This document shows, one piece after another, positions 41,231-61,415 of a stretch of DNA of 64,000 bases (positions are counted from its first letter, which is position 1; the number at the start of each line of letters is the position of its first letter). Under the pieces are notes generated by a model. That model was not told the origin of the DNA, did not search any database, and worked only from the letters and a program-made list of their open reading frames with translations. Origin of the DNA: Microgenomates group bacterium. GTDB taxonomy: Bacteria; Patescibacteriota; Microgenomatia; UBA1406; GWC2-37-13. Made by a program: the position numbers and the translations under genes. The stretch covers positions 67,223 to 131,222 of the forward strand of contig JARYMT010000001.1 in assembly GCA_029906985.1 (NCBI GenBank), read 5' to 3'.

Positions 41231-42016
41231 TTAGACAATCCCTATCTCTTTAATCTCAAACCCTCCATCAGCCTCAAAGTTAACCTGATAGATCGGCAAG
41301 CCCTTAGCTAGTCTTCTTGAGGTTTCCATTAAATGATTCTCCGCCATTTCCGACAAAACCTGATAAAGATATTCTCCGTTTAGGCTTTTATAAAGCTTGA
41401 CTGCTTTTTGTTTAACTAATTCTTCTGCCAGTTTTTTATATCTTTCCTGGGCTAGGCTCTGATGATAAACAAAAACCTGAACTTCAATTTTGCCTTCTTG
41501 ACTGTCTAAGTTATAACGGGGATAAAGGCTGTAGGGGCCAGAAACGATTAACACCGCCCCCTCAAGATGTTCGCCGTGAAGAATAATTTCTTTCGCTCCT
41601 TTTTTTTTGGCGCTGGTAAATTTTGCTCGTATTTTTTCGACCTGTTTTTTGTCAAGATTATAAGCTTGGGAGTCAAGGGTCATTTGTTTGAAATGACCGC
41701 AGCCTCCAAGCGTGAGATTTTTTTCGGCGTGAGAATCGGTATGGAACTGGAGATTTTTTTCTCCGCCAACCATTTCCACCAAGACTTGATATGCTTTATC
41801 AAGATCAACTTCAAAGCCATAAGAATTGCCTGTGGCTAAAATCAAGGCTAGATCTCCGGCATCCGCCCCCGGCACCCCGATAGGCGCCAACTGACCTTGA
41901 ACCTGGTATCTACCGTCTATGCATCTACTCGCCAGCCTCATCTTAGCTTCAACTTTATAATGATTGTCCGAAACAATTTTCCTCACCTGTTCAATTGAAA
42001 GAATATATTTTTTCAT
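41231..42016 (-). CDS. hypothetical protein (CIDGR ... HTDSH ... GGCGH motifs)
   Basis: 261-aa soluble ORF, no family recognised. The Cys/Asp/His motif spacing is loosely beta-CA-like. Confidence 0.4.
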   Translation of the reverse strand: MKKYILSIEQVRKIVSDNHYKVEAKMRLASRCIDGRYQVQGQLAPIGVPGADAGDLALILATGNSYGFEVDLDKAYQVLVEMVGGEKNLQFHTDSHAEKNLTLGGCGHFKQMTLDSQAYNLDKKQVEKIRAKFTSAKKKGAKEIILHGEHLEGAVLIVSGPYSLYPRYNLDSQEGKIEVQVFVYHQSLAQERYKKLAEELVKQKAVKLYKSLNGEYLYQVLSEMAENHLMETSRRLAKGLPIYQVNFEADGGFEIKEIGIV

Positions 42017-42101
42017 ATAAGAAAAAATTATATCACATGTTTCTAAAACCTTTGGGGTTTTATTGAAAAGTAAAAATCAAAGATTGAATTATTAACAAAA
42101 G

Positions 42102-42130
42102 TTGACTTTTTTCCCCTAGTTTTATATAAT
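42102..42130 (+). promoter_or_regulatory. near-consensus sigma-70-type promoter TTGACT-17-TATAAT
   Basis: TTGACT at 42102-42107, a 17-nt spacer, TATAAT at 42125-42130. No coding gene for about 490 nt downstream. Confidence 0.55.
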
Positions 42131-42136
42131 TTGCTA

Positions 42137-42620
42137 TAGGCTATTTTATCGCCTGAAGTGCGGTTTAATAAAGTTCGTAAAACAAGCAAACGAACTAACA
42201 AAAAAACAATTAAACCGCTTTTTTGATGTTCTTAAAATCAAAGCTTGAGTCAAGCATTCAGGCTTCAAAAATAAGGATTTTAAGCGCGCACCTTAACAAC
42301 CAGCAGCAACTTGAGGTTCCACACAAATTCCTAATAGGGATTTAATCTATTAAGGTTTGTTGGGAACCGAAATCCAGCCGTAGCGATTAACTCTCTATAT
42401 CTAAAATTAGATGTTTGAGATTATTCGCGTAGGCGGATCAAAAAGGTTATCTCCTTTTAAAAGTTGCCTTCCACTTTAAATCGGTCCAAAAGACGGGTTT
42501 AGAGAGGAAGCGCAACTTATATCGAATAAACAACGAGGAGGTGATGGAGTGATCAAATAAAAAACAACTGAATACGGATCAATTCGTGCAGTATCTAGTT
42601 CCATAGGGAGAAAAAGACCA
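42137..42620 (+). ncRNA. about 0.5-kb hairpin-rich non-coding transcript (large ncRNA or long structured leader of 42624..43001)
   Basis: No ORF of 60 aa or more on either strand. Successive imperfect long hairpins at about 42170-42228, 42315-42368, 42378-42436, 42441-42458 and 42464-42515. GC visibly above the genome background. Confidence 0.35.
42170..42234 (+). terminator. intrinsic-terminator/attenuator-like hairpin plus T-tract about 35-100 nt after the predicted TSS
   Basis: GCGGTTTAAT...(inner GTTCGT/ACGAAC)...ATTAAACCGC followed by TTTTTT (42229-42234). Confidence 0.45.
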
Positions 42621-42623
42621 ACT

Positions 42624-43001
42624 ATGAGAAAGAAAGTAGCTTACTTGATACTTGTCGCGGTGCTCCTCGTCGTTCTCGTGCCAACCTTCACGGACGACAC
42701 TTTTGCCGCCGGCCCAACCCTCAAGCCCGGAACGCTTGTCCGGATCACTGGACGAGGGTACTATAACCCTGAATGCGTCGGGTTTAGAGGGTGGCTATGG
42801 GAAGGTTCTAACCCCCAACAGTTCTACCGAATTTGCGGGTTGCCTCACGGCTATGACCATGGCATAGGAGTAGTTACTCCGAACAATTCGGGAGGTTACT
42901 ACTTTAACAAATGCTATCGAGTCTGCTTCGCATACGAAATTTGCGCATGGTACCCAACAAAATCTCTGGTGCCACTACCGTGGCAACCGGCGATCAGGTA
43001 G
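42624..43001 (+). CDS. small secreted Cys-rich protein, compositionally foreign
   Basis: 125 aa. Signal peptide MRKKVAYLILVAVLLVVLVPTFTDDTFA|AG. The mature part of about 95 aa has 5 Cys and many Gly/Tyr/Trp. Codon choice is GC-rich (CTC, GTC, GCC, CGG), unlike the neighbours. GGGAG lies 14 nt upstream of the ATG. Confidence 0.6.
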   Translation: MRKKVAYLILVAVLLVVLVPTFTDDTFAAGPTLKPGTLVRITGRGYYNPECVGFRGWLWEGSNPQQFYRICGLPHGYDHGIGVVTPNNSGGYYFNKCYRVCFAYEICAWYPTKSLVPLPWQPAIR

Positions 43002-43041
43002 ACTCACCTCTGGGAGAAGAATGAGCGTAACAACGCTCAGA

Positions 43042-43087
43042 GTGGAGAGACGATGTCGTCTCTCCACCTCCCTTTCGGGGGTTTTTC
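43042..43087 (+). terminator. intrinsic terminator (two hairpins plus T-tract)
   Basis: 12-bp perfect stem GTGGAGAGACGA-TG-TCGTCTCTCCAC, then CCC-TTTC-GGG followed by GTTTTT. Confidence 0.65.
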
Positions 43088-43164
43088 CGTAGTTGTTGCT
43101 GCTGGTGTTTGTTGTTTAGGCTTAATCTTTTAAACCTAAACAACAAGCTAATTTAAGTCTGTTT

Positions 43165-44352
43165 TTACTCTTGCTTAAAAAAGGTAGAAATGAGTGCCAA
43201 CGTTTTTGGCCCAAGTCCTCTTATTTTTCGACCATTGTCTCCCTTTAGCCATTGTTTAAGATCTTCGATACTTGTTATTCCTCCTCTTATTAACATCCGT
43301 ATAATCCTTGTCGCCTGACTCTGGTTTGTTTGCCCTAACAAAAATGCCTGAAGCAAAGCAAGAGGGTTTTGGTCTTTTCTTAAACAATGTTTATCAAGCC
43401 TGTTTATCATTCTTTTTATGGTATTTTTTACCTCCTTAAAAGTTAATCCAAGCTCTTCTGCGATCTGTTTATAATTTTTTTTCTCAAATAAATATTTTTG
43501 TAAAATTATCCGCTCAAATTCACTAGTTAATTGATCAATAATTCCCTCTTCGGCTGCTTGTTGATAAATTCTGAGGAATTGTTCCCGGATTTTCGGAACC
43601 AGACCAAGAAAATACATCCGTTTGGCTATCCATAGATATTTGTCTCCAACCCCATATTCATAAGCTAAAGTTTTTAAACTCCAACCGCGCCGTACTGCCT
43701 CTTCATAAACAGCTTCTACTGGTCTGCCAAAAACTGCTTTCAGTTGAGCCTTATATTTTTCTCTTCTTTGCTCATCGGTCATTTTTTTATAAAGACGTTG
43801 TTTCCTTGACTTTGGCCAATTTTGATAATCTATTCCAAATTTCCTAAACCAGCCACAAACTGTTTGAAAATTAAGCCCTAATAAGTTGGCCAAAGCCGCC
43901 GGCCTCATCCTCATTCTTATAATAAATTGTCTAAGCGACTCCCCCGGTTGCCTCAGTTCTTCCAATTTAGGAGATTTTACTCTCTGTGAAAATCTTTTTT
44001 TAGAGGGAGGCAATGATTTCCAGTCTGCTCCAACACGCTTTAACAAAGCTTTCGCTTCATCGTAGGGAATATTAAATAAGTCGGCGATTTCATTTGGTCT
44101 CATTCCAGAATAAAGTATAACCTCCTCAACCGTCTCACCGGCGACTCTTAGGGCTTCTGCTGTTTCTTGAATCTTTCCTGGTTTTAATGGTTTTGTAATT
44201 TTTTCTTTGTTGGGAGGAGTTATTCCATGGGTCGATAAGTAATCTGCTCTTGTATTTAAAACCCGAATCATTGCTTGGACCAAGCTGCCAACAGATTCTT
44301 TTGAAACTGGTGGTGCCTGATCTGCTTCCGGCCGACAAAAAACTTTTTCCAT
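43165..44352 (-). CDS. multi-HTH protein with sigma-70 region-4-like HTH and RNAP alpha-CTD-like HhH domain (paralogue A)
   Basis: 395 aa. Three repeated HTH-like modules (MRPNEIADLFNIPYDEAKALLKRVGADW; MRPAALANLLGLNFQTVCGWFRKFGIDY; WSLKTLAYEYGVGDKYLWIAKR). Sigma-r4-like ERIILQKYLFEKKNYKQIAEELGLTFKEVKNTIKRMINRL. C-terminal RMLIRGGITSIEDLKQW...IRGLGPKTLALI. Confidence 0.55.
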   Translation of the reverse strand: MEKVFCRPEADQAPPVSKESVGSLVQAMIRVLNTRADYLSTHGITPPNKEKITKPLKPGKIQETAEALRVAGETVEEVILYSGMRPNEIADLFNIPYDEAKALLKRVGADWKSLPPSKKRFSQRVKSPKLEELRQPGESLRQFIIRMRMRPAALANLLGLNFQTVCGWFRKFGIDYQNWPKSRKQRLYKKMTDEQRREKYKAQLKAVFGRPVEAVYEEAVRRGWSLKTLAYEYGVGDKYLWIAKRMYFLGLVPKIREQFLRIYQQAAEEGIIDQLTSEFERIILQKYLFEKKNYKQIAEELGLTFKEVKNTIKRMINRLDKHCLRKDQNPLALLQAFLLGQTNQSQATRIIRMLIRGGITSIEDLKQWLKGDNGRKIRGLGPKTLALISTFFKQE

Positions 44353-44477
44353 ATTTAATATTATACCTTATAATACTATAAGATAAATGTGATGTCACCT
44401 GTTAACTATTTACTGACTTCTCCCCATACCGACTAGTGCGGGCAATATTTTAGCTCCATACCAAACGGTGCGGGACT

Positions 44478-44705
44478 TAAAAAGACCATATTTTATTATT
44501 CAAACCTATCAAGATTTCTCCCCAGTTATTATTCGAGTAAGCGGAGGGTGTCAAGAACTATTCCCGGTTACTGTTCGAGCTTGTCAAGAAACATCCTTGG
44601 TTATTATTTAAGCTTGTCAAGAATCTTTATGTTGTTTAAGCAATCCCAGATAAGAAGAGTCCAATAATTAAAAAAATAAACTTTTAAATAATACAAATTG
44701 TAGTG
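44478..44705. repeat. 228-bp direct repeat, copy A (four tandem TTGACA-containing units plus A/T-rich tail)
   Basis: By eye, identical to 46735-46969 except one substitution (44538 t versus 46795 c) and a 7-nt TTAATTA indel near the end. Internal units GTTAYTRTTYRAGC..TTGTCAAGAA have motif starts at 44507 (degenerate), 44549, 44582 and 44615, giving spacings of 42, 33 and 33 nt. Confidence 0.9.
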
Positions 44706-44905
44706 GGGAAAAGGGGGGCGTTCACGTATTAAACCTTTTTAACCTAAAAAGCTATTTAAAAAAAGCAGGTGTCGGAAAGAAAGAAGAAATATTAAGAACT
44801 AAAAATATCACAAACTTTTAAAAGACCACCTTAATTAGAATTAATAAATAACCAATTTCTTAAACTTAATCAACTTTTAGTAAAGCGTTTTATCTCATAA
44901 AAGCT

Positions 44906-46627
44906 TCACGTATTCTTGCTGTTTTCCCAATCATTGACCTGGTCTCTTATTTTTTGTAACTGTTCTTTTATCTTATCAATCTGATGCGGTTTGATGCCTA
45001 AATTTCTCAATTCAGAATCATTACAGGATAATAAAAATTCTAGGGTAGTTTTTTTGTTGTCTCTTAAAAAACGATTAGATATTCTTGCGCCGGCGATTAA
45101 CCGGATTTCCCCCCATTCAGCTGATTGACTGGAAATAATATTTTTTTCAAATAATTTCCGCCTTAACTCATTAATCTGAGTAGGTTTTAATCCTTTGGTT
45201 ATTAATTCGTCATCACTTAGCGTGGCCACTTCTGCTGGTGAGATCTTTAAACGATATAGTCTATTACTAAGTCTTGGTCGAAGCTTAAAATCTGACCATT
45301 TTGCCTCTCTCTTTAGGTCTTCTTGCCAGAGGATAAATTTTTGATAATTAAATTTGGTTTGCAAAGTTAAAGACAAAGTTCCTTCGATCGCTCTAGCCAA
45401 ATTTAAACCATGATCGTTTAACCAGTCTTTAATATCTTGAAGAGTTTTGTTTCCGATCCCTCTTATGCGCCGTAATTGTTGCGGAGTTAGCGCTTTTAAC
45501 TCATCTATAGTAGTAATTCCCCCCCTCAATAAGGCGTTTCTGGCCCGAATTGGTAATCCGGAAAATGGGTCGACTACTCCTAGTTCCACCGCTCCCCAAG
45601 ATTTATTAATATTAATAGCTTTAAGAATTTTTGTTTTTATGCTTTGAAGATGTTGAAGAATTCTTTGTCTGGTGACTCGACCAAATTTTTCCTGATATTT
45701 TTCTAGAAGTTCGCTAATATTGGTAACTAATCCCTTTTTTAATAGATCGAAAATAAATTCTTGTTTGGGCGATAAAGATAAAGACAAATCAGGATATTTT
45801 CCAATTACCCATTTAAATACTCCAACTCGTCCTAATTGACTTATTTCTCTGGTCTTTTCTAACCAATCTCTTAAAGTATCAGGATTTATTCCTTTTTTAT
45901 GAGCAATGTCTCTTAAACTAAGGTTGTTAAAAAAAATTTGTTTTATGATTGTATCGAGATAATCTTTACCAAAGTAGCCCTCCAGTTTTGTTTTTGCTTT
46001 ACCCCTTTTTACCTCGGGAGGCGTTTTTTCTTTTATTGAGACTTCATCTTTGGGAAAATCTGAAAAAGGTATTCCCAATCTTCGATAAAGATAATAAACC
46101 AATGCCTTTCGTTGCCGAGGCAAATGAAGCATTCTACATAATTTATCTGGTCTTAATTGATTACTTATAATATATGTTGTTAATTCTTCTTCCCTGTCGG
46201 GAAAACCGTATTTTTGTAATAATTCTTTTGTTTTTTCTTTTAGACGAAACGGTCTTTCAAAAAACGGCCAATCAGCCCCAACTCCTTCTAATAAAGCTCT
46301 TGCCCGGGACGGACTTACTTTTAATATTCGTGCCAACCTTCCGATGGTTGGTTGTGCCGCCGCCAGCCATTCTTCTGGCGTTTGACCGGGAGTTCTTTGG
46401 ACTCTTATTTTATCAAGTTCAACAGGACTAAAAACTCCCGACAAAGGTTTAATCCCGGTTATAGGCGGACCATCAAGACCTTTTGATCTTAAAAAATTTA
46501 TTCTTGTAGCTACTATGGACACTATTTGAAGAACTAACCCGAGCGCATTATTATCTGGCTTAACTTGTTCGTCATTTTCTTTTGGGGGTTCAACAAGATT
46601 TTGTCCTAATGAACATATTCTTTCCAT
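44906..46627 (-). CDS. multi-HTH protein with three RNAP alpha-CTD-like HhH repeats (paralogue B)
   Basis: 573 aa. The N-terminal about 350 aa are collinear with 43165..44352 (e.g. IGRLARILKVSPSRARALLEGVGADW; LSLRDIAHKKGINPDTLRDWLEK). GLPIRARNALLRGGITTIDELKALTPQQLRRIRGIGNKTLQDIKDWLNDHGLNL closely follows the alpha-CTD pattern. Two further degenerate copies follow. Confidence 0.6.
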   Translation of the reverse strand: MERICSLGQNLVEPPKENDEQVKPDNNALGLVLQIVSIVATRINFLRSKGLDGPPITGIKPLSGVFSPVELDKIRVQRTPGQTPEEWLAAAQPTIGRLARILKVSPSRARALLEGVGADWPFFERPFRLKEKTKELLQKYGFPDREEELTTYIISNQLRPDKLCRMLHLPRQRKALVYYLYRRLGIPFSDFPKDEVSIKEKTPPEVKRGKAKTKLEGYFGKDYLDTIIKQIFFNNLSLRDIAHKKGINPDTLRDWLEKTREISQLGRVGVFKWVIGKYPDLSLSLSPKQEFIFDLLKKGLVTNISELLEKYQEKFGRVTRQRILQHLQSIKTKILKAININKSWGAVELGVVDPFSGLPIRARNALLRGGITTIDELKALTPQQLRRIRGIGNKTLQDIKDWLNDHGLNLARAIEGTLSLTLQTKFNYQKFILWQEDLKREAKWSDFKLRPRLSNRLYRLKISPAEVATLSDDELITKGLKPTQINELRRKLFEKNIISSQSAEWGEIRLIAGARISNRFLRDNKKTTLEFLLSCNDSELRNLGIKPHQIDKIKEQLQKIRDQVNDWENSKNT

Positions 46628-46633
46628 TCTTGT

Positions 46634-46662
46634 ATTATACTTTTAAAAATACTATAAGTCAA
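46634..46662 (-). promoter_or_regulatory. consensus promoter TTGACT-17-TATAAT placed for a leaderless mRNA of 44906..46627
   Basis: On the minus strand, TTGACT lies at 46657-46662, followed by a 17-nt spacer and TATAAT at 46634-46639, then ACAAGA and the ATG (46625-46627). The expected +1 therefore coincides with the A of the ATG. The homologous sequence upstream of 44352 reads CTTATAGTATTATAAGGTATAAT-N7-ATG. Confidence 0.55.
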
Positions 46663-46734
46663 TTATAATTAACTTATCAGTGGCGAAATTTTTCCATGAA
46701 TAGTTTTTATTAAGTGGCCTTAGGTAATTTGTGG

Positions 46735-46969
46735 TAAAAAGACCATATTTTATTATTCAAACCTATCAAGATTTCTCCCCAGTTATTATTCGAGCAAGCG
46801 GAGGGTGTCAAGAACTATTCCCGGTTACTGTTCGAGCTTGTCAAGAAACATCCTTGGTTATTATTTAAGCTTGTCAAGAATCTTTATGTTGTTTAAGCAA
46901 TCCCAGATAAGAAGAGTCCAATAATTAAAAAAATAAACTTTTAAATAATACAATTAATTAATTGTAGTG
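46735..46969. repeat. 235-bp direct repeat, copy B
   Basis: See copy A. Same orientation, offset 2257 bp, located upstream (in the minus-strand sense) of 44906..46627. Confidence 0.9.
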
Positions 46970-47209
46970 AAAAAATAAGTTATTGTTTAGGACTAGTTTA
47001 GAATTAAAATTGGGCAGCAAACTTTGTTATGAAGCGAGAATTTCACACCTCAACCTTGTTTCGTCAAAAGTTTAAAGAAACATTATTAAAAGATCCCTTA
47101 CGCGGTGTCCTATAAATTTGGGGTTGGCTTATCAATCAATAATAATTTAATCTAAATTATTTGGGTTAATCAGAATAATTAAGCTAGTTAAATCTGTTAA
47201 AATTTCTTT

Positions 47210-48361: not shown

Positions 48362-48373
48362 CTTGTTTTTGCC

Positions 48374-48424
48374 ATAAAGGTTGACCGTGGGGGTCAAATT
48401 TATGGCGTCAATATAATCCAAAAT
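48374..48424. repeat. 51-nt hairpin-containing repeat, copy 1 (downstream of GT4)
   Basis: ATAAAGGTTGACCGTGGGGGTCAAATTTATGGCGTCAATATAATCCAAAAT versus 51678-51728, with 4 mismatches by eye. Contains the TTGACC/GGTCAA stem extended by ATAAAGG/TTTATGG. Confidence 0.8.
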
Positions 48425-48488: not shown

Positions 48489-51400
48489 ATGCCTATTTTA
48501 AAATCAATTTCAAAATCAACTTGGTTGATTTTTTCTTTCTTTTTTTTAATTGTCGTTATTGCTGCCGGAGTTCATCTTGATCAAAAAGCAAGGATTTTAA
48601 AAAATAGAGCCCAGGAAAAAGTACCTCCTGAATTTGAATTAAAAAAACCGGAATATGCTAAAGGAGAAGTAATTATAAAGCTCAAAACGGGCAGTTTAAA
48701 TTTGAAATCGAGTGGCGGACAAGCTCTTTCTGATAAAATACCCAACCCACTAAATGAAATTGAAGAAACAATACTTCCTGAGTCATTAAAATCATTTAAG
48801 AAAAAACACCCGGAAGCAAAAATAAAAAAAGTTTTCACAAACTATACTAATCCTTCAGACGAATTAAAAACTTTTAAACAAAAATTTTCAGAAGATCTCA
48901 AAACTGGTAAACGAAAAATCAACGAGCAAGGAATCTTAAAAATTGATTTAGGAGGAATTTATCTACTTAGTTTTGATCAAAATGTGCCAGTTGAATCAAT
49001 AATCTTAGAACTCATTAATCATCCAGAGGTTGCCTATGCCGAACCAAATTATATTTATACAATTAACGCAGAATCTAATGATCCCTATTACTTAGATAGT
49101 TACCCTGATAATATAGCCAATCGGGACCCTGCCTGGAACCCAAGCTACGACTATCAATGGAACCTTAAAAAAATCAATGTTCAACAGGCTTGGGATATTC
49201 CCTTAACCCATGAAACAATTGTGGCAGTTATTGATACCGGAGTTGATTATACCCACGAGGAATTCGGTAACTGCACTTTAACAATGATTAATAATAATCA
49301 ATGCCAAAAAATTACAGCTGGCTTTAATTATATAGACCTATCTGACGATCCAATTGATGATCATGGCCACGGCACCCATGTCGCAGGAATTATCGCCGCA
49401 GCCACCAATAATAATAAAGGCGTTGCCTCTCTTGATAGAAATAATAATTTAAGAATTATGCCAATTAAATCCCTTGCTAAAGACGGCGCTGGTTATCTTG
49501 ATGACGTAGCAAGTTCTATCGTGTTTGCTTCTCAAAATGGAGCAAAAGTAATCAACATGAGTCTTGGTTCTGGTCCTTATGAAGTAGAGGAAGAAACCGA
49601 AAGAGAGGTTATAGAATTTGCTTTTAATTTTGGTGTGACTATAGTTGCCTCCGCTGGTAATAAAAATATTGATGTGGCTGATGGCTACTGGCCAGCTAAT
49701 AATCAGTATGTTATTTCTGTTGCCGCTACCGATCAAAATGACAACAAGGCTCTCTACTCTAATTTTGGAAACATAGATGTAGCTGCCCCGGGAGGAGAAA
49801 AACCATACAATTTATTATCTTTAAATGCCCATGACCCGGCTAATTCATCAAGTTTTTTAAATTTAGGCAACCTCCCTGTTGGGAATGGTTATCTACGTCT
49901 GGCTGGGACATCAATGGCCGCTCCCCATGTTGCTGGTTTAGCTGGATTAATTTTATCCAAAAATCCAAATTTAAATCCATTAGAGGTCAGGTCAATTATT
50001 GAATTATCTGCTGATTCAATGGGAGATCCAGGAATAAATAGTTATTTCGGTTGGGGAAGAATTAATGCTTTTAAAGCGCTTTCTTTTAACGGTTCTCCAC
50101 CTGTGGCGGAAATTTACTCGCCGACAAGAAATCAAATAGTTCACGGTGTTTGTGAAATTATCGGTACGGCTACCGCAGTTAATTTTTCCAGTTTTAATCT
50201 CTCTGTCGGTCTCGGCGCCCACCCAACTCAGTGGTCAAGTCTTGGAATTACCCAAACTACTAATAATTCTGTTGAAAATGGCTTGTTGGGGACAATTGAT
50301 GTTTCCTATTACAAAAACCAACAATTTACTATCAGACTACAAACAAATACTTTAACAGGCCAAACAAAAGAAGCCTATGTTTTTGTTTCTAATTTCATCT
50401 ATAGTGTCCCGTCTTTACCATCATCGCCTGAATGTCCCTACCCAACAAGACGGTTTTCTATTTATTATGGTTATGCCTACATTAATAATCAATTGGCGCC
50501 AGAAGGAACAAAAATCTGGGCAGTCACCCCCCGAGGCGAAATTGCTGGTTGCCAAACCGTTATAGAAAATGGGATGATTCAATTTATGCATGTTTATGGA
50601 GAAGATGAACCGAATATGCCGGGAATGAGAACAAATGAACCAATTAGTATTTATGTCAACGATTCTTATGCTACTACTGTTCCTTCAACTTTGTTTTGGC
50701 AAAATGATTGGAATACTCATATGATAGAAGTTTATGCCCCAGCTCCGGGCCAGCAAATAAGTTTAAACACTGGTTGGAATTGGATAACTCAAAGAACACT
50801 TATTCCTGATCCAGCTATTGCTGGAGCCCTATCAAGCATCTCTGGCAAATATGATCAAGTTTTGGCCGAAAACGGTATCTATTCTTCCTGGTTGCCGCCG
50901 GTATACAATACGCTTAATAACTTATCAGCTGGCGCCATGTATATGATTCATGCCACTGACATTGCCGAACTAAAACTATATGGAGAGCCTATCCCCGTTT
51001 CCCAACCCATATCTCTTCATCAGGGATGGAATTGGATTGGGTACTATGGTCAAAGCCCGATGTCAATAACAGTGGCTTTAAGTTCTATTTCCGGTCAATA
51101 CTCAAGTGTCTTAAGCGAAGATGAATACTACGATCCTCTTAATCCTGATTATTCTTCTTTACAAACCCTGATACCAAATAAAGGATACCTTTTAAAATCA
51201 AAAATTAATCAAACTCTAATCTACCCTTCCTCAACTACTCAAGCCGCTAATCAAGCCACTAATTCTGTGTTGGGGGTAGCATCAACTTCCCTTTGTAAAA
51301 AAACAGTCACCAATATCTACACCAATGTTTATGCTAAAATTCCTAAATCAGTTTTTAATGCCAAAGATGATTTGACAGCAAAATTTATAACACCAAGCGG

Positions 51401-51662
51401 TGTCATCGCCGGTTGTGGGACCATCCAAAGAAATTTATTAAAAATAACTCGTTTGTTTGGTGAGGAATCAATTAATGGAAAAATTTACCCCGGTTTTAAA
51501 AAAGACGATTTGGTTAGAGTAGAAATAATTAATAACCGAACTCAAAAATCAATAGGGACCTTTGCCACAAATTTTAAGTTCACTCCCGATGATCAAGCTC
51601 ATTTTATTGAAATTGTTACTTCCTCACAGTCTCCAACCCCAACCCCAAGACGAAAAAAGTAA
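48489..51662 (+). CDS. S8 family subtilisin-like serine protease with I9-like propeptide and about 500-aa C-terminal extension
   Basis: N-terminal TM/signal. Catalytic triad motifs VIDTGVD, HGHGTHVAGII, GTSMAAPHVAGLAGL. Internal duplications in the C-terminal half. The protein ends in SPTPTPRRKK. Confidence 0.9.
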   Translation: MPILKSISKSTWLIFSFFFLIVVIAAGVHLDQKARILKNRAQEKVPPEFELKKPEYAKGEVIIKLKTGSLNLKSSGGQALSDKIPNPLNEIEETILPESLKSFKKKHPEAKIKKVFTNYTNPSDELKTFKQKFSEDLKTGKRKINEQGILKIDLGGIYLLSFDQNVPVESIILELINHPEVAYAEPNYIYTINAESNDPYYLDSYPDNIANRDPAWNPSYDYQWNLKKINVQQAWDIPLTHETIVAVIDTGVDYTHEEFGNCTLTMINNNQCQKITAGFNYIDLSDDPIDDHGHGTHVAGIIAAATNNNKGVASLDRNNNLRIMPIKSLAKDGAGYLDDVASSIVFASQNGAKVINMSLGSGPYEVEEETEREVIEFAFNFGVTIVASAGNKNIDVADGYWPANNQYVISVAATDQNDNKALYSNFGNIDVAAPGGEKPYNLLSLNAHDPANSSSFLNLGNLPVGNGYLRLAGTSMAAPHVAGLAGLILSKNPNLNPLEVRSIIELSADSMGDPGINSYFGWGRINAFKALSFNGSPPVAEIYSPTRNQIVHGVCEIIGTATAVNFSSFNLSVGLGAHPTQWSSLGITQTTNNSVENGLLGTIDVSYYKNQQFTIRLQTNTLTGQTKEAYVFVSNFIYSVPSLPSSPECPYPTRRFSIYYGYAYINNQLAPEGTKIWAVTPRGEIAGCQTVIENGMIQFMHVYGEDEPNMPGMRTNEPISIYVNDSYATTVPSTLFWQNDWNTHMIEVYAPAPGQQISLNTGWNWITQRTLIPDPAIAGALSSISGKYDQVLAENGIYSSWLPPVYNTLNNLSAGAMYMIHATDIAELKLYGEPIPVSQPISLHQGWNWIGYYGQSPMSITVALSSISGQYSSVLSEDEYYDPLNPDYSSLQTLIPNKGYLLKSKINQTLIYPSSTTQAANQATNSVLGVASTSLCKKTVTNIYTNVYAKIPKSVFNAKDDLTAKFITPSGVIAGCGTIQRNLLKITRLFGEESINGKIYPGFKKDDLVRVEIINNRTQKSIGTFATNFKFTPDDQAHFIEIVTSSQSPTPTPRRKK

Positions 51663-51677
51663 AGTGGTTTTTTTGTT

Positions 51678-51728
51678 ATAAAGGTTGACCGCGGGGGTCA
51701 AACTTATGGCGTCAATATAGTCTAAAAT
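51678..51728. repeat. 51-nt hairpin-containing repeat, copy 2 (between the convergent S8 protease and tatD genes)
   Basis: See copy 1. Confidence 0.8.
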
Positions 51729-61380: not shown

Positions 61381-61415
61381 AAAACTCACTACAATTAATT
61401 AATTAATTGTAGTGA
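61381..61415 (-). terminator. intrinsic terminator of pyrH (A/T palindrome plus T-tract)
   Basis: Perfect palindrome CACTACAATTAATTAATTAATTGTAGTG (61388-61415), followed on the minus strand by AGTTTTTT. Confidence 0.5.

Follow-up and report, generated by a model that had tools for sequence, protein, structure and literature searches.

Why should two neighbouring genes whose products have diverged strongly be preceded by nearly the same stretch of intergenic DNA? The question is raised by a locus within 64,000 nt of the genome of an uncultured Microgenomates group bacterium (assembly GCA_029906985.1, contig JARYMT010000001.1, positions 67,223 to 131,222 of the forward strand), which we refer to as the window and number from its first base. 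A first-pass annotation of this DNA had described direct repeats of about 230 bp that differ by one substitution and a 7-nt indel, and this description was confirmed by a repeat finder, by blastn and by alignment. The repeat finder reported a 219-nt direct repeat at 44478-44696 and 46735-46953, with a start-to-start distance of 2257 nt, and blastn of the window against itself showed the two copies to be 99.5% identical. The sole substitution is T44538 in copy 1 versus C46795 in copy 2. Beyond the 219 nt, copy 2 alone carries 7 additional nucleotides within an (AATT)n core, after which the copies have 9 more nucleotides in common. At its full extent copy 1 covers 44478-44705 (228 nt) upstream of a gene that we call gene A, and copy 2, with C46795 and the 7-nt insertion, covers 46735-46969 (235 nt) upstream of a second gene, gene B; both copies read 5' to 3' on the minus strand. 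When the two intergenic regions were aligned globally, 223 of 230 columns were identical across the repeat, and the gene-distal flanks, with 39.5% identity, were unalignable. We found no third copy in the 64-kb window by blastn (n = 2 copies), and a search of 42017-43164 for a decayed third paralogue or repeat copy returned nothing significant.

Gene A (43165-44352, 395 aa) and gene B (44906-46627, 573 aa) are both on the minus strand and encode collinear paralogues with 26% amino-acid identity. Comparison with Pfam and NCBIfam identified a Sigma70_r4 helix-turn-helix (HTH) domain in A (residues 273-319), together with a sub-threshold match to the sigma-70 family over residues 168-321. In B the same comparison identified an RNA_pol_A_CTD domain (residues 358-404), which is a helix-hairpin-helix (HhH) domain like that of the RNA polymerase alpha subunit C-terminal domain (alpha-CTD), and the C-terminus of A aligns with this domain of B. 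The alignment of B to E. coli alpha-CTD is gapless, with 34% identity over 58 aa (E 9e-7), and B retains what we take to be the equivalents of the E. coli residues R265, N268, G296 and K298. The AlphaFold model of A is an all-helical, multi-HTH fold without winged-helix strands (mean pLDDT 66.5). Foldseek searches with this model gave weak matches, none of them at E<=0.001, and sigma factors made up most of the best-ranked ones. The only good superpositions were those of isolated sigma-4 domains, at TM 0.7-0.8, though with E-values above 1. When we inspected the sigma-4-like helix of A by eye, the residues with which sigma-70 reads TTGACA were not visibly kept. Their domain content identifies A and B as DNA-binding proteins.

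The family to which A and B belong is nearly an orphan. HMMER found 12 matches among 1.84 billion representative proteins, and among these 12 the full architecture was present, besides A itself and B, only in P0004, P0006 and P0008. A word-index search for homologues of B returned B itself only. Relatives of A or B were not found on plasmids by tblastn or on viral contigs by a protein-guided scan, and PADLOC and PHROGs gave nothing beyond HTH-level matches for the adjacent proteins. A literature search on tandem TTGACA operators or sigma-4/alpha-CTD fusion proteins in Patescibacteria likewise yielded nothing specific.

How did two such divergent genes come to share the repeat? DNA that is 99.5% identical upstream of genes whose products are 26% identical, and that is missing from relatives (see below), requires a recent copying or recombination event. 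Because the flanks of the copies are non-homologous and the copies differ by one base, we conclude that the second copy is recent and that it arose either independently of flanking homology or in a Campbell-type event via a pre-existing copy. The asymmetry between repeat and genes had been attributed in the first-pass annotation to recent gene conversion, mobility or selection. The asymmetry itself and a recent copy or recombination event stand, but the data do not fit classical gene conversion of paralogous regions of long standing, since the flanks of the module are not homologous. With a single substitution between the copies, selection is indistinguishable from recency, and recency alone can explain their identity.

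The DNA between repeat and gene requires a similar distinction. The gap from the repeat to the ATG had been put at 125 nt for each gene; this is correct for gene A, but for gene B the gap is 107 nt. These intervals had also been described as strongly diverged, which is true of the stretch from the repeat to the promoter (32.5% identity between the A side and the B side in the global alignment) but not of the last 47 or so nucleotides. Over the final 47 columns before the start codons the two regions are 64% identical, and the promoter found there is conserved in relatives. We considered whether the duplication could be an artefact of assembly, as a repeat of 219-228 nt exceeds typical short reads and k-mers. 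However, the copies differ by a substitution and an indel, they sit in different unique contexts, and the gene order agrees with that of a syntenic locus in a relative (L001), making an artefact extremely improbable.

The repeat has an ordered interior. In the direction of the gene, a terminal palindrome, CACTAC(AATT)nGTA, is followed by an A/T tract, a degenerate unit and then four units. Each unit is bipartite, with a box 1, TTCTTGACA (ATCTTGATA in unit 4), and a box 2, yGAAyArTAAC. On the minus strand, unit 1 (44600-44623 in copy 1, 46857-46880 in copy 2) reads TTCTTGACA-AGCT-TAAATAATAAC, and unit 2 (44567-44590 and 46824-46847) reads TTCTTGACA-AGCT-CGAACAGTAAC. In unit 3 (44525-44557 and 46782-46814), TTCTTGACA is separated from CGAATAATAAC by a 13-nt spacer that is about 9 nt longer than usual and is the site of the only substitution between the copies. 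Unit 4 (44492-44515 and 46749-46772) is degenerate and reads ATCTTGATA-GGT-TGAATAATAAA. To the earlier description we add a degenerate fifth unit, unit 0 (44627-44656 in copy 1, about 46884-46913 in copy 2), which is distal to unit 1, has lost box 1 and retains a box 2-like GCTTAAACAACATAA at 44627-44641. The A/T-rich tract occupies 37 nt at the gene-distal end (44663-44699, 95% A+T; about 46920-46963 in copy 2).

The spacings of 33, 33 and 42 nt that were given initially for the units hold for box 1, and the corresponding box-2 spacings are 33, 42 and 33 nt. The 42-nt spacing of box 1 results from the extra 9 or so nucleotides between box 1 and box 2 of unit 3. TRF likewise reported a period of 33 nt, with a score of 87. 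The sequence TTCTTGACA occurs 8 times in the window, compared with 0.5 expected, and 6 of the 8 occurrences are inside the repeats. The full 24-nt unit is confined to the repeats within the 64-kb window, even when 3 mismatches are allowed.

Units 1 to 3 contain perfect TTGACA hexamers, and the first-pass annotation had noted that these -35 hexamers lack a convincing -10 element. We found 14 matches to TTGACA-N15-19-TANNNT in the window compared with 3.2 expected, from which we conclude that canonical TTGACA/TATAAT promoters are in use in this organism. The matches do not include any of units 1-3, and a promoter scan of the array flagged unit 4 only, both in agreement with the initial observation. 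Because they have no -10 element, units 1-3 are orphan -35-like sites. The promoter-like site in unit 4 (44485-44512, minus strand; 46742-46769 in copy 2) reads TTGATA-16-TATGGT and is the only one in the array directed at the gene. It scores 9/12, and sites with this score are common by chance, with 19 found in the window and 12.9 expected. The last base that the copies have in common (44478 in copy 1, 46735 in copy 2) lies 7 nt after the -10-like hexamer of unit 4, a position at which transcription from this site would be predicted to start.

Both genes also have a proximal promoter of their own. That of gene B (46634-46662, minus strand) is TTGACT-17-TATAAT, scores 11/12, ends 6 nt before the ATG, and matches the promoter of the homologue P0006 with 90% identity over 31 nt. 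The equivalent region of gene A (44360-44398, minus strand) contains GTGACA-17-TATTAT plus a TATAAT located 7 nt before the ATG. In genes B and A, the -10 hexamers (in 46634-46662 and at 44360-44365, respectively) precede the ATG by 6-7 nt, which suggests that the mRNAs are leaderless or near-leaderless. The distance from the array to the proximal promoter differs by 17-18 bp between gene A and gene B, which argues against geometry-dependent action of the array on the proximal promoter. Between copy 1 and gene A, at 44411-44470 on the minus strand, we also observed two direct copies of CCCGCAC-N7-GGTATGG(A/G)G, about 34 nt apart, which can form a hairpin (dG -21.6, z -1.75) and are absent from the equivalent region of gene B.

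Could the array be a set of stacked promoters, or a region that recruits RNA polymerase, with the holoenzyme binding the hexamers and the UP-like tract and starting at unit 3 or 4? This would be consistent with the three perfect TTGACA hexamers, given that the organism has promoters of this type, with the arrangements TTGACA-17-TAATAA in unit 3 and TTGATA-16-TATGGT in unit 4, and with the 95% A/T tract upstream. On closer comparison, however, units 1 and 2 have no -10 element at any allowed spacing and unit 3 lacks the T at -7. Moreover, about 40 nt separate the A/T tract from the first hexamer downstream of it, so that the tract is not where an UP element would be, and a strong proximal promoter is already present. 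We consider such a polymerase-binding or stacked-promoter role for the array to be quite unlikely.

Homologous loci show what the locus looks like without the repeat. In these the gene adjoins a divergent GT4 glycosyltransferase, as in the window, and the upstream region is just 76-128 nt long and contains the promoter TTGACTTATAGTAT...TATAAT, the same as the proximal promoter of gene B. We found no trace of the 228-nt element or of its units in loci L001-L005, nor were sites conserved in the 76-128 nt upstream of these orthologues. Further relatives were located via a conserved neighbour protein of 261 aa. In L127-L129, where this protein is 57% identical, the glycosyltransferase and the gene for the 261-aa protein are 50-67 nt apart, without the A/B genes. 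L126 (64%) retains the position of a small secreted protein and a conserved non-coding block and is also without A or B, and L131 (64%) has the same block, within which its contig ends. No relative examined carries the element. Because the relatives have just the proximal promoter of 76-128 nt, the repeat is a lineage-specific addition to a promoter that was already functional.

The conserved block has features of its own. In the window it lies at 42102-42529, read on the minus strand upstream of the gene at 41231-42016, and it is 87-93% identical to L126 and L131, a DNA identity that exceeds the 64% identity of the adjoining protein to its L126 and L131 counterparts. The block has no Rfam match, and RNAalifold on two sequences predicted 85 pairs, 6 of them compensatory. 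We regard it as a candidate structured RNA or long leader.

Locus L001 agrees in gene order with the window, and the locus is chromosomal and syntenic with relatives. At 3705-7309 of L001, tandem HTH paralogues of 925, 100 and 462 aa share coding tracts of 215-300 nt with 72-89% identity, which indicates module duplication or gene conversion inside the family. From the tracts at 85-89% identity we conclude that tandem copies of these genes actively recombine with one another. In view of these comparisons, the interval of about 43118-47209, which contains A, B and their expanded upstream regions, is best described as a variable island. No recombinase gene was found in or near this interval. The suggestion that recombination between the two copies could lead to loss or circularisation of the 2257-nt interval is plausible.

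A variable island invites the explanation that the repeat is a neutral by-product of recent recombination at a hypervariable site, a duplicated segment that happens to contain a 33-nt minisatellite and has no function. Possible routes include illegitimate recombination and the Campbell-type integration of a circular molecule with gene B on it. The lineage specificity of the element, the absence of A and B from the same junction in L127-L129 and in L126, and the tracts shared by the L001 paralogues are all expected under this explanation, and a single substitution between the copies leaves no time for selection to show. Difficult to reconcile with it are the same orientation and equivalent position of the copies relative to two separate start codons, the bipartite units with perfect -35 hexamers, and the coincidence of the copy boundary with the predicted transcription start. 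A neutral origin is, in our judgement, a minority possibility that nevertheless deserves weight.

Alternatively, the copies could belong to a dispersed, non-autonomous family of intergenic repeats with internal tandem sub-units, similar to MITEs or BOX elements, with more copies elsewhere in the genome. Near-identical copies in non-homologous contexts would fit such a family, and the modular interior recalls the BOX elements of pneumococci, which are likewise near-identical intergenic sequences made of tandem sub-units. The window also contains a second pair of intergenic repeats, a 59-nt direct repeat with 90% identity at 48366-48424 and 51670-51728. In addition, the distal terminus of the module is a palindrome whose core recurs at 61387-61414. 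However, only two copies are present in 64 kb, and both are in the same orientation at a fixed position upstream of paralogues. Terminal features of a MITE or IS family, which the initial description had named as a point to check, were not visible, either as terminal inverted repeats joining the ends or as target-site duplications in the flanks. Database searches also failed to reveal further members. The repeat had no match in plasmid and phage DNA by blastn or in viral contigs by pattern scan. A single-unit pattern gave two matches in metagenome contigs, both of them single chance matches apparently inside coding sequence, and a loose three-unit pattern matched at least 118 stretches of genome contigs from unrelated phyla, none with the bipartite unit or any likeness to the repeat. 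Membership in a dispersed family is therefore doubtful.

With regard to the other repeats in the window, each 59-nt copy follows the stop codon of a plus-strand gene at a distance of 5-8 nt, and the two bracket a subtilisin-like gene (48489-51662). Each folds into a hairpin of about 15 bp (z -2.65 and -1.83), and the pair represents a family of terminator-like intergenic repeats. At the gene-distal end of copy 2, positions 46949-46966 form an 18-nt perfect palindrome, TACAATTAATTAATTGTA, and its equivalent in copy 1 is shortened by the 7-nt deletion. The core of this palindrome recurs in a 28-nt perfect palindrome, CACTAC(AATT)4GTAGTG, at 61387-61414, in the gap between tRNA-Pro and pyrH, two convergent genes. 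In its extended form the hairpin at that location has a dG of -21.4 and a z-score of -5.2, and it is the same in arm and core as the gene-distal end of copy 2 (46949-46969). The two sequences may represent a shared protein site, or a terminator.

The layout of the repeat had also suggested a theta-type replication origin or a packaging site. Indeed, the elements of an iteron origin are recognizable in four units at 33, 33 and 42 nt beside a 37-nt tract of 95% A+T, close to a gene for a DNA-binding protein, as in the origins of pSC101 and pPS10 and lambda ori. In addition, the direct repeats bracket a 2257-nt unit, so arranged that an integrated small replicon could be imagined, with the product of gene B as initiator and the repeat as its origin, partition or packaging site. 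We found nothing else to support this proposal. The adjacent proteins have no match to a Rep, Par or terminase family in Pfam, NCBIfam or PHROGs, only to HTH, sigma-4 and alpha-CTD domains, and the all-helical AlphaFold model has no winged-helix strands. The repeats contain no DnaA box, even with one mismatch allowed, and there is no GC-skew inflection at the region, where cumulative skew falls monotonically. The period is 33 bp, compared with the usual iteron period of about 22 bp. Finally, there are two copies 2.3 kb apart at a chromosomal locus that is syntenic with relatives, without plasmid or viral relatives and without a recombinase gene nearby. We conclude that an origin or packaging site is very improbable.

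Nor is the repeat a structured RNA. The fold z-scores of the two copies, +0.23 and +0.98, do not point to a stable structure, and Rfam gave no match to the repeats at the gathering score or at E<=1. Open reading frames overlapping the repeats are limited to short ones of 20-47 aa that begin with codons other than ATG, and the module seems not to encode a peptide.

An array of phased, repeated sites in front of genes for DNA-binding proteins is the arrangement of an operator array, and the units may plausibly be bound by protein. Five features speak for a functional cis-regulatory cassette rather than a randomly duplicated fragment. Relative to the two start codons, the copies match in both orientation and position; each unit is made of two boxes, and the units are in phase; the -35 hexamers have no -10 partners; the neighbouring products A and B are DNA-binding proteins; and the shared sequence stops exactly 7 nt past the only gene-directed promoter-like site, at what would be its +1. 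Other features weaken the operator interpretation. The element is absent from all relatives, which leaves no counterpart of the boxes for comparison, and the promoter-like site in unit 4 scores just 9/12, which is frequent by chance. The 17-18 bp difference in distance to the proximal promoter, the recency of the copy and the sigma-70 residues not visibly kept in A also count against it.

On balance, our preferred but tentative explanation, which we hold with somewhat less than even confidence, is that the repeat is a promoter/operator module, copied recently, through which the two paralogues come under shared, probably autoregulatory control. In this model, the module would be a self-contained cis-regulatory unit that consists of the A/T tract, a phased array, and a weak sigma-70-type promoter over the last unit. 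The array would present four to five bipartite sites (TTCTTGACA + yGAAyArTAAC) phased at 33 bp, or about three helical turns, and the module would have been placed upstream of an ancestral proximal promoter that is conserved in the family. Recent copying within the variable island, by illegitimate or Campbell-type recombination, would then have left both tandem paralogues with the module. We infer that the sites are operators for a multi-HTH protein that binds cooperatively along one face of the DNA. The likeliest binders would be the products of the adjacent genes A and B, with regulation running from these products back to their own genes as joint autoregulation.

Do known systems behave in this way? 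The omega protein of plasmid pSM19035 is a global repressor that acts at arrays of heptad operators. As in the omega system, a direct-repeat array is found here upstream of more than one gene, including that of the predicted regulator itself. The two differ in that omega is a ribbon-helix-helix protein with 7-bp heptads, whereas the units described here are 24 nt long with a 33-bp period, are chromosomal, and are predicted to be bound by HTH/HhH proteins. The 5' cassettes of the mycoplasma vsp and vlp genes are comparable in another respect, as near-identical upstream regions precede strongly diverged tandem paralogues in a recombination-prone locus. Those genes, however, encode surface lipoproteins and undergo site-specific inversion, whereas A and B are DNA-binding proteins without an accompanying recombinase. 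Direct-repeat operator arrays and near-identical cassettes before diverged paralogues are thus both known already. What appears to be new is an element without detectable relatives that is paired with an almost orphan protein family.

A further comparison is with the upstream elements of RNA polymerase itself, where sigma region 4 contacts the -35 hexamer and alpha-CTD contacts the UP element. The module shares with these the TTGACA hexamers and an A/T tract, and the adjacent proteins carry sigma-4-like and alpha-CTD-like domains. At the same time, units 1-3 have no -10, the tract is off the UP position, and the proteins are not polymerase subunits. A more specific form of the binding model would have A and B as free-standing copies of polymerase modules, a sigma-4-like HTH and an alpha-CTD-like HhH, that occupy an array in which orphan -35 hexamers and a UP-like tract mimic a promoter. 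We view this version as speculative and give it low probability.

The regulatory DNA and the transcription factors of Candidate Phyla Radiation (CPR) bacteria are almost unstudied, and this locus provides a testable pair in the form of two orphan multi-HTH proteins and a sharply delimited candidate target array. If the proteins do not bind the array, the locus would still be a record of very recent recombination within a variable island, in a genome that is reduced. If the polymerase-mimic version is correct, it would represent a new CPR circuit, with decoy promoter elements at which polymerase-like factors either compete against the holoenzyme or give way to it. If binding does occur, the array would supply the first DNA motif for the A/B protein family, and the locus would be a natural example of a portable promoter/operator cassette copied between paralogues.
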